DNA of 47,008 bases from a virus. How positions within the stretch are numbered: the stretch's first letter is position 1; each line of letters starts with the position of its first letter. The position numbers and the translations under genes are program-made. This document shows, one piece after another, positions 15,777-44,920 of the stretch. Location: UHGV virus genome UHGV-1362026; one strand, given 5' to 3'. The notes beneath the pieces were generated by a model. The model was not told where the DNA came from. It saw only the letters and a list, made by a program, of their open reading frames with translations, and searched no databases.

Positions 15777-16217
15777 TCAATCTACATCTGAAAGCAAGCC
15801 AAAATACGCCAACACTGCAATCTTTATCTGGTCGAGTCCACACGCCACCGCAGAGAATGCACCAGCGTTGGCGCTATCATTGAGAAACGGTATCTGTCCG
15901 GGTTGCCATTTGCTAAGCGTTGAATCATGGCGCTTCAACTCTATCGTCGCTTTATGCCACATCACTCCAGGCGTCAGGATTATCACATCAGACACCCCTG
16001 ACCTGACACCTTTCCTTGCGCGCGATGCCAGATGCTGCACTGAGTTGCTTTTGGTCTCCTGAGACGGATGGAACCACAGCACATCAGGAAACCGGTAATC
16101 CATCCACCACTTGAACGCTATCAGGTCTGAATCCTCAAGCGGGCAATCGCCGCGGTAGCTATCATCAAACACAAAAACATTATCACTCAGTTCATGCTGC
16201 TTGAATCGCTTTTTCAT
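15777..16217 (-). CDS. VRR-NUC domain nuclease
   Basis: GVRSGVSDVIILTPG...ATIELKR matches the VRR-NUC signature (G..G.PD..., ElK); ATG at 16217 with AGGAGA RBS; overlaps the helicase 3' end by 26 nt. Confidence 0.65.
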   Translation of the reverse strand: MKKRFKQHELSDNVFVFDDSYRGDCPLEDSDLIAFKWWMDYRFPDVLWFHPSQETKSNSVQHLASRARKGVRSGVSDVIILTPGVMWHKATIELKRHDSTLSKWQPGQIPFLNDSANAGAFSAVACGLDQIKIAVLAYFGLLSDVD

Positions 16218-18126
16218 TATTCTCTCCTGTAAAATCTTTTCTGTGGATGATGTCTCGGCCTTTATCATTAATGCGATGCGTGATGCGTTTTGGCGCTTTA
16301 ATCAATCCCGCATACATCATGAATTGTTTGGCGTTCTGGCATTTCAGGATTTTCCCTGCCATTGACTTATCATCAAGGTGAGGGAAGATAGCCTTTGCCT
16401 TGAACATGTTTTTCATGTGAGTTGCTCCGCCATAAGGGTAGAAAACTTCGTTAGCCCACCCCTCCTTGCCATCACAACGATTAATCCAGTAGCGATACAA
16501 AATACCTTCTCCGTCCTTCGTTAACTGAACCTTGAAATCCATAACATCAGCCCATTCGTTGTCGGTATACGCACGCTCATTCAATGCCGCATTCGGGTCG
16601 CGCAAAACGTGATCGCAATGTCGGCAATAGCGAGCTGTCGGGTCGTTTTTAGTACCACATCCATCATCAAAAATACGGATGCCATGCTTATCGAAACCAC
16701 AACGGATATAACTGAAAAACTCTTCGCAACGACCATCTGGCGACAATGCATCTTTGCCAATACAGCGGCGCGCATATGGGCTGTTCATTGTTCCGCATTT
16801 AGGACACGGAACTTGTTCACCACTTCGTTTTGAACGTTGCGCTTCAGCTTCTTCCAGAATTGGGTCTTCATATAGCTGACCAAGCTCAAACATCGTGCCT
16901 GAGAAATCAAGAACCAGATGGTCTTCTTTATGATACCCGGCGTCAATTTGCTCTTTCTTTAGCAGGCGCATTCCGCGACCAAGCAACTGAACAAGAAGAG
17001 TGAGTGACATTATTTTTCGCAATATGCAGCTCGTATCCCATAACGGTATATTTACGCCAGTGGTAAGGGCGGCTATCTGGAATGTGAATTTTTTGCGCCC
17101 GGTGTATGCATCTTTTAGAGCTTTCCTTCTGGCTTTTGACCCCATATCTTCTGTGACTATTGAATAACTTCCTTCAGGCAAATATTTTGCCGCCTCCTGA
17201 CAATGCTTCTTACCAGCACATGTAATTAGCACTCCGTTCCTGTTTTTAGTCAATTCCATAACCTTAAGCATGATTTTCTGCGTCAACGTACCTTGCTCAA
17301 GAATTTCTTTCTGCATCTGCTTGAGCTGCTCGGCGGTAAAGTCCTGAGTACCATCAACATCTGAACCATGAAAATCTGAAAGGTCATAATGCAGACTATC
17401 AACATCATGAAGACCAAAAATTGTTGGCACAAGAAAACCGTTTTCAACCATGTACTTGGTGTCTATGTTGATAATCTCTTTCTTCCAGAAAGCTCCTTTT
17501 ATTGATGTAGTTCCGCGAAACGGTGAGCCTGTATAACCTATTATTCTCAACTCATGGCCGTGCTTATCTTTGCACCTTTTCATTAGCTCATTAATTATCA
17601 CTGCATACTGCGTATCACCATCATTAACAACATCAATGTCATTAACCATATGATTTTCATCGATCAGCAGGAATCTTGGGTAAAAGTCAGAAAGCGCACC
17701 TTTTGCAATAACATTCCCTGACTCATCCTTTTTATCAAACAAAGCATTTACAACAGTACCCTCAGAACCACAGATTATTGGGTACGTAGAACTTTTCCTA
17801 CCCAACGAAGCACTGAATAGCGAGTTTCTAACACCAAGCGACCATAGTTCTTCCGCATCTTGCTCCACTATTTCGCCCTGTCTTGATAAAATCATCCCTG
17901 AATAGCCCATTTCCTGAAAACGCTTTGCTATCATGGCAATCATCAGTGACTTTCCGCTACCGACGCTTGCTGTTACATAACTCGGGCCAACATAATGACG
18001 AATCACCTCACCAGTTAACTTATATATCAACCACTGGTAGGGTCTTGGCTCGATATCACCAGTATCCAGGCAGGATTTCAGCAAGTTAATGTCAATCTTT
18101 GAAATCATTTTGTCTATTTTATGCAT
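16192..18126 (-). CDS. SF2 (DExH) DNA helicase with C-terminal zinc-ribbon
   Basis: 644 aa; Walker A VGSGKSLMIA, DExH box LIDENH, C-terminal CPKCG...CRHCDH. Confidence 0.8.
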   Translation of the reverse strand: MHKIDKMISKIDINLLKSCLDTGDIEPRPYQWLIYKLTGEVIRHYVGPSYVTASVGSGKSLMIAMIAKRFQEMGYSGMILSRQGEIVEQDAEELWSLGVRNSLFSASLGRKSSTYPIICGSEGTVVNALFDKKDESGNVIAKGALSDFYPRFLLIDENHMVNDIDVVNDGDTQYAVIINELMKRCKDKHGHELRIIGYTGSPFRGTTSIKGAFWKKEIINIDTKYMVENGFLVPTIFGLHDVDSLHYDLSDFHGSDVDGTQDFTAEQLKQMQKEILEQGTLTQKIMLKVMELTKNRNGVLITCAGKKHCQEAAKYLPEGSYSIVTEDMGSKARRKALKDAYTGRKKFTFQIAALTTGVNIPLWDTSCILRKIMSLTLLVQLLGRGMRLLKKEQIDAGYHKEDHLVLDFSGTMFELGQLYEDPILEEAEAQRSKRSGEQVPCPKCGTMNSPYARRCIGKDALSPDGRCEEFFSYIRCGFDKHGIRIFDDGCGTKNDPTARYCRHCDHVLRDPNAALNERAYTDNEWADVMDFKVQLTKDGEGILYRYWINRCDGKEGWANEVFYPYGGATHMKNMFKAKAIFPHLDDKSMAGKILKCQNAKQFMMYAGLIKAPKRITHRINDKGRDIIHRKDFTGENNEKAIQAA

Positions 18127-18716
18127 TATTTTACCCTACCAAATTCACCATTAAGAACTGATGATGCTTTTGCATACGCTTTATGTGCATCTTCAGGTGT
18201 ATTAAAATAACCAATAACTTTCTTCTTGCCTCTAACCCAAATCTGAGCAACCCATTTCTTCTCCCTTGAGAACCAGCTAACACCTTTATATCCGCTAGTG
18301 TTATTTGATGACAAACCTTTATTCCATTTGTTTTGACTGCAATCAGCCAGCCTGAGGTTTTCTATCCTGTTATCGTTCTTAATAGTATTAATATGATCTA
18401 TATCCATAAGTCCAGGGTCTTGCTGTTTGCATATAGCCCACACAATTCTATGTGCTTTATAATAAACGCCATCAATCATCACTAGCCTGTAATTCATCTT
18501 ATCAACCTTGTTATCAGCAGGCTTGCCCAGATACCGTGCATTCCATGTTTTGTGATGTGGTGTTAATTCCTCTCTCTTTTTCCAATATAGGCGTCCATTG
18601 ATGACCTCTAACCTTGATGTCACGTAATCAACATCAATCTTTAGCACCTTTCTTTTTTTCTCTAAAACTTTTGAGTCGGCATCCTGAGCAACAGAACTCA
18701 GCTCTTGCTGTTCCAT
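18126..18716 (-). CDS. HNH homing endonuclease with AP2 domain (second copy)
   Basis: IDHINTIKNDNRIENLRLADCSQN and SGYKGVSWFSREKKWVAQI...IGYF; TAATG overlap with the helicase start. Confidence 0.8.
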   Translation of the reverse strand: MEQQELSSVAQDADSKVLEKKRKVLKIDVDYVTSRLEVINGRLYWKKREELTPHHKTWNARYLGKPADNKVDKMNYRLVMIDGVYYKAHRIVWAICKQQDPGLMDIDHINTIKNDNRIENLRLADCSQNKWNKGLSSNNTSGYKGVSWFSREKKWVAQIWVRGKKKVIGYFNTPEDAHKAYAKASSVLNGEFGRVK

Positions 18717-18836: not shown

Positions 18837-19823
18837 ATGATTCTACATCATCGTCAACAGGAAGATTTTGTGAGATACGACTGGAAAGACATTGAGCCAA
18901 AAATGCTTGGCAACTGGCAGGCCGCCATCATGTCTATCGTCAATGTGGATAGCAGAGTTTTCAATGGCAAGCACCAGCCATGCCCGTCATGCTCAGGAAA
19001 AGACAGGTATCGCTTTGATGATAACTTCGAAACAAAAGGCGATGGCGGAGCAATCTGCAATCAGTGCGGTTCCGGTAGCGGCATGAACTGGCTGATGAAA
19101 CTCTCCGGCATGAGCTTTCCTGAAGCACTGGAGGCGCTGGGAGGATTCCTGAACATGCACCCACGCGAAAAGCTGGAGGCAATCAGGAAGGAGTTACCGA
19201 AGATAAATTACAACGATGACTTCATCACCGAACAGGAAGTCGCCGCAATCATGGCTAAAACAACGCGTGTCGCAATGAATGAGTGGACTTTGATAAATGG
19301 TATTGGTTGCGACATTAACGTCGTCAGAGGTAAATCTGGGGAGCTTATTGCTGTTGAACTGATGCGTGCTGACACAATGAAGCCGTGCAACGTGGCATTC
19401 ATTGGCATGGATGATTATTCATTCAGAACGTTTTTCCGTGCTGGATACGACAAAGACTCAGCTATCAACGGAAAGCTCACGCGCGGAGCGATAAGCCCAA
19501 TCGGAGAAGACAACGGAAAGTTCATTTACCTGGTATCTGATTATGCCGATGCGTGGAAGTGCCATTACTTCACTGGCGCTCATGTCTGGTGCTGCTGGTC
19601 GCCGGAAAATATGTGGGAAGTGGTGCGTTCTGTTAGCGATGAGACGAAAGCACGGTTACGCTGCATAGTTAATTATAAATTTGACGAACTTTGCGCTGCG
19701 GAAAACGCAGGACTACCGGTGATGCTGCCTGATGATGCTGACACAATCAGGATGGCAAAGAGAATCAGGAGAAAAATTTATGACGCTGGCGAGTTGATAG
19801 GTAAAATGTCAGTAAGCAGATAA
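18837..19823 (+). CDS. DNA primase (T7 gp4-type zinc-binding domain plus TOPRIM region)
   Basis: CPSCSGKDRYRFDD...CNQCGSGSG resembles the Prim_Zn_ribbon motif; start uncertain (ATG 18837, GTG 18870 with AGGAAG RBS, or ATG 18903). Confidence 0.7.
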   Translation: MILHHRQQEDFVRYDWKDIEPKMLGNWQAAIMSIVNVDSRVFNGKHQPCPSCSGKDRYRFDDNFETKGDGGAICNQCGSGSGMNWLMKLSGMSFPEALEALGGFLNMHPREKLEAIRKELPKINYNDDFITEQEVAAIMAKTTRVAMNEWTLINGIGCDINVVRGKSGELIAVELMRADTMKPCNVAFIGMDDYSFRTFFRAGYDKDSAINGKLTRGAISPIGEDNGKFIYLVSDYADAWKCHYFTGAHVWCCWSPENMWEVVRSVSDETKARLRCIVNYKFDELCAAENAGLPVMLPDDADTIRMAKRIRRKIYDAGELIGKMSVSR

Positions 19824-19924: not shown

Positions 19925-20122
19925 TTAAACATCATCATAACACCAATATGCAACACGCATTATTTCAACCAAATCATTTGATGATAAAAAATTATTGCCA
20001 TTATAAATTGCGTGGATTCTTTCACCATCAACAGTTAATGCCACAACATTTCGTCCTATTTGTGGTCTCCACAGATAGCAATCAAACCATTCAACATCAT
20101 ACCAATCATCTTCTGGAATCAT
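19925..20122 (-). CDS. hypothetical protein
   Basis: 65-aa ORF with ATGA overlap to the upstream 548-aa gene. Confidence 0.45.
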   Translation of the reverse strand: MIPEDDWYDVEWFDCYLWRPQIGRNVVALTVDGERIHAIYNGNNFLSSNDLVEIMRVAYWCYDDV

Positions 20123-21765
20123 TTCAACCTCGGATTAATGTGGACAGTATTACCAATAAAAACGCAGTAACCATCCTCTTCAAGTGATGGTAATACACTT
20201 GATCTGAGTCGGTCATAAATTTTAGGTATACCTTTGAATGGTCGCACGTTTTTAAGTGAATCATAAAGCCACTTCACCGTTACGTTTGTTTTTCCTTTCT
20301 GAGCGGCAGAGCGTAGCTTTTCGGCAACAACATCAAATTCAGAACGCTCGCCAGCATATCCATTTGATTCCACGGCGTCGGTGAATGTTTTTGTCAGTGC
20401 GTCATAAACACTGATAGCTCGACTAATCTCATTTTCACCGATAATCTTTGAACGCTTTCCTCCATCGCACCAGTTTTCAGCAGCGTGAAATATTGCTGCC
20501 AGACGGATTATTTGCTTATCAGCTTTACCCATCGCGCCACGAAGAAGGACGTGGTCCCACTTACCGCCTGGAAGGAAGTTTTTCTCCCACTGGTTTCGCA
20601 ACAGACCTATCATTCTTGCTGAGTCATTGTGAAGCGTCAGTTTTGTTTTTTCTGCTGACACAACATTATGTATAAATCTTGCATATTCCGACCTCAAGCT
20701 GTCTGGCATTGGCTTGCTTACAGGGCAGTCATTAACCATGTCCCAGTGTTCGCGATAGCCAAGCATTGATTGCTCGCGCAGCATCAGGAAACGTTCAGAA
20801 AGCCCGTTCCCCCTGTCGCCAGCGGCAAGAATGGCATCAATACTTTCATCCTGAGCAATCACACTTATGTTTCCAAGTACGTAACCAGATGAAACGCCAC
20901 GACCAACACGAGCGGAACCAATAAATCCACCATCCCAGCCCTTCAGGATGACTTCGGCGTTTGCCTTTCCACCTTCTTTTCCGTAAGAGAGGCCAAGGCA
21001 TGTGTTAAGAACGCTCGCCTCGTCACTTATCAGATTAAAAAAACCACCCTCATGGATTGCCTGATGCTGAACAGCCTCCGGCGTTGCGTCAGTCAGTGGA
21101 TATGTAATCGTATAAAGCTCTTCCAGCTTCTCCTTTTCGCGAGCAATATCATCGCCGATTAGTGCCTTTGCATTTTGGTTGCTTGCCTCTTTGTATGCCT
21201 TCATCAACTCTTCAATGCGAAGGTTTATTTTTATGATCTGCTTTTCCATCTTTTTGGAAAGGTTGTCATATTCAATCTTCACCGGATTCATATGCATTGA
21301 GTTAATAGCGGTTTTCCCTGCTGATGGAGGCTGAGAAGTAACCACGTAAAGAGAAACTGGAAGTTCTGAATGGTAATACTCAACGCTAAAGTTTCTCGTC
21401 ATTGCACTGGCAACGCACCCAAGTAAATGCATGAACGATGTATTTATTGGGAACTGAACAGCGCGAGCTGCAGCGATTGCATAACGAGACAGCAAATCAG
21501 TCCGGTGCTCACTGGTGAGTTCTGTTTCTGAGTAAGTTACATCACGCTCCTTACCTTCCTTGATGTCAAGCCACATGTTAGAACTTGGTGTCATGCCATG
21601 ATGGAAGGCAACGCGAGCAGGAGATACTTTTAATTCCCTTGCTTCATTGAAGATATCTTGCGCTGTGATCATCACTGAACCCTTAAAATTGTTAATTCGC
21701 ATGTGTCCCTGTTGTATTTTGTCCAGTACACAAAGTCGTTTTTCTTTGAAATCTTGGACAGGCAC
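20119..21765 (-). CDS. large replication-associated protein of unknown function (possibly primase-associated/DUF3987-like)
   Basis: 548-aa ORF (track start is GTG; ATG at 21702 has an AGGGA RBS); weak P-loop-like PSAGKT; co-transcribed leftward from the origin-like region; naming uncertain. Confidence 0.4.
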   Translation of the reverse strand: MPVQDFKEKRLCVLDKIQQGHMRINNFKGSVMITAQDIFNEARELKVSPARVAFHHGMTPSSNMWLDIKEGKERDVTYSETELTSEHRTDLLSRYAIAAARAVQFPINTSFMHLLGCVASAMTRNFSVEYYHSELPVSLYVVTSQPPSAGKTAINSMHMNPVKIEYDNLSKKMEKQIIKINLRIEELMKAYKEASNQNAKALIGDDIAREKEKLEELYTITYPLTDATPEAVQHQAIHEGGFFNLISDEASVLNTCLGLSYGKEGGKANAEVILKGWDGGFIGSARVGRGVSSGYVLGNISVIAQDESIDAILAAGDRGNGLSERFLMLREQSMLGYREHWDMVNDCPVSKPMPDSLRSEYARFIHNVVSAEKTKLTLHNDSARMIGLLRNQWEKNFLPGGKWDHVLLRGAMGKADKQIIRLAAIFHAAENWCDGGKRSKIIGENEISRAISVYDALTKTFTDAVESNGYAGERSEFDVVAEKLRSAAQKGKTNVTVKWLYDSLKNVRPFKGIPKIYDRLRSSVLPSLEEDGYCVFIGNTVHINPRLK

Positions 21766-21884
21766 ATCCTGAAAATAAGCGCCTCAATACCTATCGTCTT
21801 AAGATTTATAACCTTTTTCTCGTCAACCCTCATTCTTGAGACTATATCGCGAACTCGTTTCATATTTGACATTTTTACCGCCAA
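21672..21884 (-). CDS. hypothetical small protein
   Basis: 70-aa ORF overlapping the 5' end of the 548-aa ORF in another frame; first ORF left of the AT-rich region; may be spurious. Confidence 0.3.
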   Translation of the reverse strand: MAVKMSNMKRVRDIVSRMRVDEKKVINLKTIGIEALIFRMCLSKISKKNDFVYWTKYNRDTCELTILRVQ

Positions 21885-21984
21885 CCGTGGTTAATCATGG
21901 TGTGGAAGATTATATAAAGATATAAACGAAATAGCAACCACATCATTTCTGGTGTGGCTTAAGAGACTGAATGGTTAGCTATGG

Positions 21985-22292
21985 GTAACGTGGGTAAAGC
22001 GTGGGGCAACCAACCTTCCCCACGAAGTTTCACTCTAAGTATATGTAATATAATATAATTATTATTATTTGGGTTAATGGGTAATATTATTATTCATATT
22101 ATAGATAGTAATTAACATAATATTAACAAATGGATTATTTGAATATATTTATAAGGGGATGGGTATGAAATCTGCCCCTTTTTACCCACGAAAAATAAAA
22201 ACATCAAAATCAATAATTTACGATAAAAAACGTGGGGCAACCAACCTTCCCCACGACCTGCCCCACGGGCAAAAATTTACCCCACGAGCACG
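21985..22292. repeat. iteron-like repeat cluster flanking an AT-rich core: candidate replication origin / divergent control region
   Basis: Identical 26-mer CGTGGGGCAACCAACCTTCCCCACGA at 22000-22025 and 22231-22256 (itself a 7-bp inverted repeat). At least 8 CGTGGG/CCCACG units and several GGGTAA/GGGTTAA units. AT-rich core (~85% AT) at 22030-22160. Confidence 0.5.
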
Positions 22293-22309
22293 TTTTTAAC
22301 GAGTTGCTG

Positions 22310-22338
22310 TTGACGTAGAATCACAACTGATGTAGATT
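22310..22338 (+). promoter_or_regulatory. sigma70-type early promoter TTGACG-17-TAGATT (rightward)
   Basis: TTGACG 22310-22315, 17-nt spacer, TAGATT 22333-22338; built from two copies of the 12-mer TTGA(C/T)GTAGA(A/T)T; about 30 nt upstream of the ATG at 22370. Confidence 0.55.
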
Positions 22339-44111: not shown

Positions 44112-44920
44112 CACATCTTCTCCAGAATTGCCATAACCTCGTGAATGTCAGCGACAGGAATCTGGATAAATTCCTCATCCTCTGCCACCACATGACCAGC
44201 AGGGAGAATCACATGGTCTGCTGGCTTCAATAACTCAATCAGGCGGTCTACTGGCTTAATCTTTTTCGACTTCAGCACTTTGGCTGTGACCTTGTCTTTG
44301 CCTTGTGCTTTAGCTTCTTCAACTGCCTCGTCGATAACTTTAACCGCGTCATCGCCATGCTCACGAGTTACTGCTACGGCATTTGCATAGCTTATTTGCC
44401 CGGCGCTGATTCGCGCTTTTACTTCCGCTGGCACATCACCCAGCGACAGGTGCATCTGCACGTCAGATACTGAACGCCCTACCTTCCTGGCGATTTCTTC
44501 ATTCGTCCAGCCAAAACCTTTCAGTCGCGTGTAAGCCTTTGCACGCTCAAACGGGTCAAGCTGCTTACCCTGGCTGGATGACACCATGAAGGCGATTTTA
44601 TCTGCTTCGTCTCCTGTAAAATCCTTACACTCAATGCGAACGATTGGTGCGCCACGCTCAATGGCACGCAATGCGCCGAGATAGCGATGCTGACCATCAA
44701 GAATGCGCATTCCCTTCTCGTCTGGAATAACTGTTAATGCTGGCAATGGCTGACCTGATTCCCAGCACTGTGCGAAATACTCCACATGCTGCTCATCTGC
44801 CTCACGGATGTTGTATCCCGGCTCCAGATAGATTTGCTCAACTGGCACGAGATAGGTTTTGTTAACAGCGATTCCGTTGCGCGTTTCTTTGTCTGAATAG
44901 ATTTTGCTGAGTGTTTTCAT
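44111..44920 (-). CDS. ParB-like nuclease domain protein
   Basis: ILDGQHRY... motif (ParB/Srx fold, DGxHR) in the N-terminal half; 269 aa. Confidence 0.7.
   Translation of the reverse strand: MKTLSKIYSDKETRNGIAVNKTYLVPVEQIYLEPGYNIREADEQHVEYFAQCWESGQPLPALTVIPDEKGMRILDGQHRYLGALRAIERGAPIVRIECKDFTGDEADKIAFMVSSSQGKQLDPFERAKAYTRLKGFGWTNEEIARKVGRSVSDVQMHLSLGDVPAEVKARISAGQISYANAVAVTREHGDDAVKVIDEAVEEAKAQGKDKVTAKVLKSKKIKPVDRLIELLKPADHVILPAGHVVAEDEEFIQIPVADIHEVMAILEKM

Follow-up and report, generated by a model that had tools for sequence, protein, structure and literature searches.

The window analysed here is a stretch of 47,008 nucleotides, the virus genome UHGV-1362026, which is essentially the complete 47-kb genome of a virulent siphovirus of the Skatevirus/Macdonaldcampvirus type. 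Its named relatives include Salmonella phage Vi II-E1, Shigella phage DS8 and Escherichia phages C1, HC6 and Bas78/79; such relatives have been classed as Macdonaldcampvirus, Deseoctovirus or Akiravirus and were lumped as 'Skatevirus' in the BASEL paper. Our subject is a non-coding element of about 300 bp, 0.3 kb from the operon of a DUF3987 helicase, which carries arrays of short G-rich sites on both sides of AT-rich DNA (Table 1) and whose layout is suggestive of a replication origin. A preliminary description had placed an origin-like region between a leftward replication-gene unit and a rightward early unit. Our annotation agrees with this layout, the left unit consisting of a small open reading frame (ORF) and the helicase gene and the right one of small early genes. 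Beyond the helicase on the left lie genes for a primase, an HNH endonuclease and an SNF2-like helicase.

Table 1. Coordinates of the element, its parts and the flanking genes in the window; fractions refer to the 30 aligned relatives.
Feature	Position	Strand	Remarks
SNF2/ResIII-type helicase, zinc-ribbon inserts	16192..18126	-	Pfam Helicase_C/ResIII, phrog_16; zinc ribbons at residues 441-508
DnaG-type primase, T7-like zinc ribbon	18837..19823	+	PF08273, phrog_510
DUF3987 (SF6, MCM-like) replicative helicase, 518 aa, ATG 21675	20119..21675	-	PF13148, E 1e-34; predicted C-terminal winged helix
Small first gene of the helicase operon, 66 aa from ATG 21872	21672..21872	-	no family assignment
Leftward sigma70-like promoter, TTGCTA-17-TATAAT	21909..21937	-	consensus scan, 10/12 matches; window-specific flank, mean identity 24%
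Left outer half-sites L1 (TGGGTAA, 21982) and L2 (TGGGTAA, 21991)	21982..21997	+	direct, 9-11 bp apart; 30/30
Left 26-bp palindrome (half-sites L3, L4)	22000..22025		core TGGGG-N11-CCCCA 22002-22022, centre 22012
Conserved AT-rich core	22034..22135		65/102 columns invariant across 30 sequences; mean identity to the window 88%
Inner half-sites C1 and C2 (TGGGTTAATGGGTAA)	22070-22084		within the AT core
Proposed DNA-unwinding element, 88% AT	22086..22154		inside the least stable 100-bp duplex
Inner half-site block C3-C6: AGGGGA TGGGTAT ... GCCCC ... TACCCA	22155..22190		two direct, two inverted; 21-30/30
Spacer	22191..22229		variable sequence (mean identity 58%, indels), constrained length, two classes about 9 bp apart
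Right 26-bp palindrome (half-sites R1, R2)	22231..22256		core 22233-22253, centre 22243
Right outer half-sites R3 (TGCCCCA) and R4 (TACCCCA)	22259..22286	-	mirror of L1/L2; 30/30, R4 invariant TGGGGTA
Rightward early promoter, TTGACG-17-TAGATT	22310..22338	+	-35 region TTGACGTAGA invariant, fixed distance to the right palindrome

Half-sites, palindromes and the AT-rich core

The intergenic region was aligned from 30 distinct relatives with Salmonella, Escherichia, Shigella and Klebsiella as hosts, and Vibrio and Aeromonas as labelled. What was computed directly comprises the sites with their orientation, spacing and conservation, the instability of the duplex, the neighbouring genes and the fold of the helicase. 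The two palindromes share an identical 26-mer, CGTGGGGCAACCAACCTTCCCCACGA, at an offset of 231 bp, and the repeat can be extended to 30 nt at 97% identity. Each copy is a 7-bp inverted repeat, CGTGGGG-N12-CCCCACG. The 26-mer, its offset and the inverted repeat had been noted in the preliminary description, together with at least eight CGTGGG/CCCACG units and five GGGTAA-type units, and we found eight of the former and all of the latter in the region. CGTGGGG matches the 47-kb window eight times against a genome-wide expectation of 2.6, with six of the matches falling within 22000-22286, and a count of eight was reached in none of 100 shuffles. The shorter half-site TGGG(G/T) occurs 12 times in 311 bp, whereas its frequency elsewhere in the genome predicts 0.63 (Poisson P = 5e-12); every other 311-bp window of the genome contains at most four, and composition-matched shuffles gave a mean of 0.5 and a maximum of four.

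The repeat unit itself had to be redefined. CGTGGG units exist as described, but the conserved core is TGGGG or TGGGT, the leading CG being confined to one clade, and the alignment refined the unit to (T/A)GGG(G/T)NA. Fourteen half-site positions are conserved, 11 of them in 30/30 sequences and the other three in 21-29/30, and individual half-sites drift between TGGGG and TGGGT across relatives yet remain inside the motif. The left array consists of three direct sites and one inverted site and the right array of one direct and three inverted sites, the outer arrays being mirror images of each other, with inner sites C1-C2 and C3-C6 between them. All 30 sequences keep the TGGGG and CCCCA pentamers of both palindromes unchanged, the 11-nt spacer is free to vary in sequence while fixed in length (10 nt in one subgroup), and complementarity beyond the pentamers is not preserved. 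Because of these three properties the palindromes appear to behave as a dimeric protein site, of which this pattern is the signature, and not as a hairpin.

An alternative is that the region is bound by a host protein or acts through DNA structure, be it a cruciform, a G-quadruplex or terminator hairpins between transcription units; a phage-specific binder would then be absent. Hairpins with 7-bp stems can form in the 26-mers (dG -7.5 and -7.7; z -2.7 and -3.3), the G-runs are clustered, and a perfect integration host factor (IHF) core consensus, AATCAATAATTTA, one of three in the genome, is located at 22208-22220. The IHF match, however, falls in the non-conserved spacer, and among the relatives only those of the Salmonella type with the 231-bp spacing retain it. 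Hairpins fit poorly with the loss of outer complementarity, with loops of 10-11 nt and with palindromes that no T-run follows. A host factor would also need to be nearly universal, since the motif is found in a marine (Tara) phage and also in enterobacterial phages, and DnaA boxes are not enriched. We hold this explanation to be highly improbable. An intramolecular G-quadruplex was rejected as there are usually only three same-strand G-runs, too few to form it. The possible hairpin proposed earlier at 22155-22185 was not borne out: the fold of 22150-22195 is no better than that of shuffles (z = -0.11) and shows no compensatory changes, and what is conserved in its G and C runs is the sequence, as would be the case for further half-sites. 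A structured RNA or terminator was likewise discarded, with no Rfam match near the gathering score, no covariation and a fold at shuffle level. A coding function was rejected as well, because the 46-aa ORF at 22159-22299, for which Bas79 has an annotation, lacks a start codon in relatives such as L007. Overall, no Rfam family, tRNA or conserved ORF accounts for the region.

The AT segment at 22030-22160 had been put at about 85% AT; it is AT-rich but measured 82%. Its richest 100 bp (22047-22146) reach 86%, as against 72% in the next-richest window of the genome, and the core also has the lowest duplex stability of any 100-bp stretch in the genome, its nearest-neighbour dG being -97.8 kcal/mol compared to a mean of -138.3 (standard deviation (SD) 7.0), a difference of 5.8 SD. 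The best-conserved gene in the vicinity, that of the helicase, has about 76% nucleotide identity to the Klebsiella clade, compared with an average of 88% for the core, and neither the small ORF nor the left promoter zone can be aligned among relatives (24-34% identity). A direct repeat, TTAACA-N6-TTAACA at 22112-22129, is invariant in 30/30 relatives, and its reverse complement, TGTTA-N6-TGTTA, presumably resembles the ArcA direct-repeat box.

The spacing of the palindromes is also conserved. Measured from centre to centre, they are 231-232 bp apart in 21 sequences and 222-222.5 bp apart in 10, corresponding to 22.0 or 21.1 helical turns, and in L041, a relative with 62% identity, the distance is 230.5 bp although the intervening DNA is unalignable. 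The right palindrome centre lies 66-68 bp from the start of the -35 region in 30/30 relatives and 87-88 bp from it in the L041 type, which is two turns more. These distances suggest that a single nucleoprotein complex of fixed shape may assemble here.

Distribution of the element and candidate binding proteins

The repeats were present in all related genomes examined. More distant loci were collected as helicase homologues and their contigs inspected, a cluster being defined as at least five TGGGG/CCCCA per 350 bp next to AT-rich DNA. Clusters were detected 0.05-1.8 kb from helicase genes at 87-100% (window clade), 61-62% (L041, L073, L076), 49% (Pectobacterium phage Ymer), 43% (L045) and 33% (the Tara Oceans marine phage L046) identity. 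In Ymer the complete grammar spans the circular junction: three direct sites and an inverted one are followed by an inner pair, then by AT-rich DNA of about 130 bp, and on its far side by a second inner pair, inverted, and the right dyad. Around 25 T1-like and other loci (34-41% helicase identity) contained no TGGGG cluster, with a maximum of 2-4 sites, and no match to the element was found in plasmids or in 5,426 E. coli genomes (satellites, prophages).

The neighbourhood proteins common to the TGGGG-bearing lineages are those of the replication core only: the DUF3987 helicase, the SNF2-like helicase, the primase and a single-stranded DNA-binding protein. Their terminases differ. The window encodes Terminase_3 with an unassigned candidate TerS (phrog_9747), Ymer a GP3_package/Sf6-type TerS, L045 Terminase_2 with Terminase_6N/6C, and L046 GP3_package with Terminase_6N. 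Since only the replication core is shared and the motif survives replacement of both the terminase and the regulator, the element appears to track the replication module.

The terminase genes also bear on the idea that the element is a packaging (pac) site, at which the small terminase would bind both arrays and make the first headful cut in the AT core. In the headful siphovirus SPP1, the pac site consists of pacL and pacR arrays around a central segment upstream of terS, and the layout here, with repeated boxes in two sets, resembles it. The terminase module always follows the element, with terL some 3.4 kb away in Bas79 and terS about 170 bp away in Ymer, and at least six records or contigs of relatives begin or end in the AT core. 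Unlike SPP1 pac, the phage motif persists across unrelated TerS families, and with its architecture it spans three TerS and two TerL families; the candidate terS lies about 2.5 kb, or roughly ten genes, downstream in the window and about 2.5 kb away in Bas79 too, adjacency being seen only in Ymer. The record ends, for their part, scatter over about 75 bp: Akira is a circle cut without a terminal repeat, the KpV2811 end is degraded, and ZCKp20p was sequenced from a 69x Nextera library, which is consistent with assembly dropout in DNA of 86% AT. Headful packaging of permuted genomes with no defined terminus has been reported for relatives (PhageTerm), and PhageTerm found no defined termini in KlebP_265. 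A pac function is, in our judgement, very unlikely.

What might bind the half-sites? The 70-aa product of the small ORF, named earlier as a possible binder, proved a poor candidate. The slot of this gene is a swappable cassette that holds at least three unrelated families beside identical arrays (unassigned, weakly AP2-like and Cro/YdaS-like) and a frameshifted pseudogene in Vi II-E1, and we rejected the small upstream ORF on these grounds. The gene had no Pfam or PHROG match, and the AP2-like similarity, seen only in some phages (E 2e-5 to 6e-4), is below the Pfam cut-off. The cassettes lie at 21672-21884 (minus strand) in the window and at 223-495 in L003, 2304-2630 in L004, 2250-2522 in L007 and 3174-3475 in L001.

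The binder is probably a phage replication protein, and the adjacent MCM-like helicase is the most likely candidate among those encoded by the phage. The 548-aa helicase frame given previously (20119-21765) uses a GTG start farther upstream, in overlap with the small ORF; the relatives point to the 518-aa protein instead, as close relatives (87-100% identity) all encode 517-518 aa, and the ATG at 21675 overlaps the stop codon of the small ORF. An AlphaFold2 model from a 47-sequence alignment reached a pLDDT of 90 and a pTM of 0.86, and its best Foldseek matches were MCM2-7 and archaeal MCM chains, with probability near 1 and TM-scores of 0.32-0.39. At the C-terminus (residues 443-513) a winged helix is predicted, with the order helix-strand-helix-helix-strand-strand. 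A sequence search of the PDB with the helicase found no match, leaving the fold search alone informative. The model agrees with the classification of DUF3987 proteins as superfamily 6 (SF6) replicative helicases by Kazlauskas et al. (PMC4889955), and 5'-3' helicase activity has been shown for a PriCT-DUF3987 protein (PMC11724360). It is possible, if doubtful, that the phage helicase is its own origin-recognition protein, the pentamers being read by the winged helix and the mirror arrays, set 22 helical turns apart, directing head-to-head loading onto the AT-rich core. The SNF2-like helicase, which is common to L041, L073, L045, L046 and the T1-like loci, could be an alternative DNA-recognition component.

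A putative origin and its relation to early transcription

Clustered repeats above chance, an adjacent easily melted element and a location beside replication genes are among the criteria for an iteron origin, and these three were found together at this locus. The fixed spacing of the dyads, the instability of the core and the persistence of the element beside DUF3987 helicases despite changes of terminase and regulator likewise point to an origin. We propose that 21982-22286 is, with rather better than even probability, the origin of vegetative DNA replication, of the iteron-plus-unwinding-element type, and this proposal likely extends to the whole group of Salmonella, E. coli and Klebsiella phages. 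The cumulative GC-skew minimum, which had been suggested as a check, is located at 21886, some 100 bp away from the array, and that of Bas79 at 44678, within the homologous gap. The earlier interpretation as an origin with an early control region is partly supported: the computational checks put forward were favourable, but the repeat unit, the hairpin and the 70-aa binder did not stand.

Several observations weigh against an origin or against its attribution to the helicase. The GC skew is confounded, its sign flipping at every switch of gene orientation, and is hence weak. The loci were found via helicase homology, so that part of the association between element and helicase follows from the sampling itself, and in all lineages the element lies between the replication and the terminase modules. 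DnaA boxes (TTATNCACA) are not enriched, with one 1-mismatch match in the region and 46 against 52 expected genome-wide. A fixed spacing of about 220-230 bp together with a fixed promoter distance is equally typical of transcriptional looping elements. Finally, winged-helix sequence does not separate TGGGG-bearing from TGGGG-lacking helicase lineages, which leaves the helicase a candidate binder.

The looping argument leads to transcriptional control, in which the TGGGG sites would be operators for a regulator that loops the ~231-bp segment in the style of AraC, GalR or DeoR and switches divergent early promoters, the AT core serving as UP-element or promoter DNA. The element does lie between outward-facing sigma70-like promoters, with an invariant minus-strand TATAAT (22103-22098) inside the core. 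The right dyad is in fixed register with the invariant -35 region TTGACGTAGA (66-68 bp, or 87-88 bp in the L041 type), the centre of R4 falls near -62 relative to the predicted start, and the dyad spacing classes are about one helical turn apart. Nevertheless, no regulator gene is common to the TGGGG-bearing lineages, the small gene being swapped and, in Vi II-E1, a pseudogene; the left array is conserved but the left promoter zone (24%) is not; promoter-like matches are not enriched (8, versus 4.6 in shuffles, SD 2.2); and the L045 element follows the helicase terminator, outside any divergent promoter gap. The extreme duplex instability of the core would also go unexplained. We consider transcriptional control in place of an origin unlikely. 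It is compatible with an origin, and the same complex could do both: a role of the element in early control is plausible, because the right array keeps its distance of 66-68 bp to the invariant rightward promoter.

If the element is an origin, initiation might proceed as follows; the identity of the binder, melting, loading and origin activity itself are what we infer. A phage replication protein would bind the half-sites cooperatively, this being preferably the DUF3987 helicase through its winged helix, or else the SNF2-like helicase or the primase. The two dyads, 22 (or 21) turns apart, would then be joined in one complex, in which the AT core (~70-100 bp, 86-88% AT) is stressed and melted. 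The helicase would be loaded on the melted strands, the DnaG-type primase would prime, and host DNA polymerase III would be recruited, as relatives encode no polymerase of their own (a DNA polymerase has been reported missing from them). Transcription from the rightward promoter could aid opening, or the same complex could control that promoter.

Comparison with known systems and further observations

The element combines features of several known origins. In Staphylococcus aureus pathogenicity islands (SaPIs), two repeat sets reportedly flank an AT-rich segment beside the gene of a self-initiating Rep helicase, with the primase gene adjacent. The phage element is alike in its paired repeat sets around AT-rich DNA, its adjoining helicase gene and its nearby primase gene, and the SaPI5 primase-helicase chain was a weak fold match to the phage helicase (rank 39). 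It differs from the SaPI origin in that the phage helicase is an SF6/MCM-like DUF3987 protein, the motif is another one, and the element is upstream of the helicase operon, not 3' of rep as in SaPIs; binding by the helicase is putative here. The origin of phage lambda lies inside the O gene, with four tandem O-protein iterons on one side of an AT-rich region; it is activated by transcription and uses host polymerase III. Dyad-symmetric iterons beside an AT-rich unwinding region, a putative use of the host polymerase and a possible dependence on nearby transcription are shared with it, whereas the phage element is intergenic and has two mirror-image arrays flanking the core, and no O/P-type initiator or loader was found in the window.

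The core origin of SV40 and polyomavirus (~64 bp) contains four GAGGC pentamers bound by the superfamily 3 helicase large T antigen, which assembles head-to-head. It shares with the phage element G-rich pentanucleotide half-sites inverted beside an AT tract; the phage element, in contrast, has 14 sites over about 300 bp, dyads 231 bp apart and an SF6 helicase, with no sequence relation. At archaeal origins, origin recognition boxes (ORB and mini-ORB) with a G-string are inverted around a DNA-unwinding element beside orc1/cdc6 and serve MCM. The phage element may resemble them in its inverted G-run arrays around an AT-rich element, in recognition by a winged helix and in an MCM-type helicase, but the phage has no Orc1/Cdc6 homologue, its helicase or some other protein would have to read the sites, and the likeness may be convergent.

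The repeat itself is not new. The GenBank record AM491472 (Vi II-E1) has marked the same element since 2008 by 'repeat_region' features, two copies of GTGGGGCAACCAACCTGCCCCACGA 231 bp apart. It stops at these two repeats and gives neither a function nor a half-site grammar, a spacing rule or a distribution across genera. A search for the repeat sequence in literature full text returned only unrelated primer matches, none in a phage context. Known, then, are the repeat and the general type of element; new are the site grammar, the strict spacing rule, the occurrence in several genera and in a marine lineage, and the association with DUF3987 helicases. For Skatevirus, Macdonaldcampvirus, Roufvirus and their relatives, which are widespread virulent siphoviruses, several of them proposed for biocontrol or therapy, an origin has yet to be defined, and, as far as we found, the same holds for any phage relying on a stand-alone DUF3987 helicase. 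The explicit grammar, the spacing rule and the short list of binders make the origin question directly testable. If the helicase were to read the sites, this would show how an MCM-like helicase is targeted in bacteria, and would place initiation in the style of archaea and eukaryotic viruses (ORB, T antigen), independent of DnaA/DnaC, in bacterial viruses from enterobacterial to marine.

Other repeats were seen at related loci. The T1-like phages, whose DUF3987 helicases are 35-39% identical, are without TGGGG arrays. In the divergent gap of Klebsiella phage RCIP0001 (Webervirus-like; L044 6187-6850), 32-nt inverted arms 301 bp apart surround an AT-rich palindrome, accompanied by TGTTTGGTAAGATTT repeats, and different repeats, inverted as well as direct, occur in the T1-like locus L043 (5602-6334); both loci may carry equivalent elements of another specificity. 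In L045 (11121-11480) and L046 (8070-8470), a second motif, CTGCCGCAAA or CCGCAAA, is interleaved with the TGGGG sites, and the window is without it. An HNH-AP2 homing-endonuclease gene (18126-18716, minus strand) lies between the SNF2-like helicase and the primase genes; as the close relative Bas79 has no such gene at this junction, the comparison suggests that it may be a mobile insertion.

The element also leaves traces in public data. At least six public records or metagenomic contigs start or end, at scattered positions, inside the equivalent of 22050-22126 in the AT core, the sequences concerned being Akira (MK599416), KpV2811 (MT682064), ZCKP8 (MZ440881), ZC2, ZCKp20p and the IMG/VR contigs L034/L068 and L072; these ends most likely stem from short-read assembly dropout rather than from real termini. 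Small 'hypothetical protein' coding sequences (CDSs) are annotated across the element in Bas79 (Bas79_0081/0082, L012 44322-44670), Ymer (CDS0001, L127 1-153) and L008 (MK54_52, 2762-2941), and are probably spurious. In practical terms, the 86% AT core repeatedly breaks short-read assemblies, and the element draws spurious CDS calls in GenBank.

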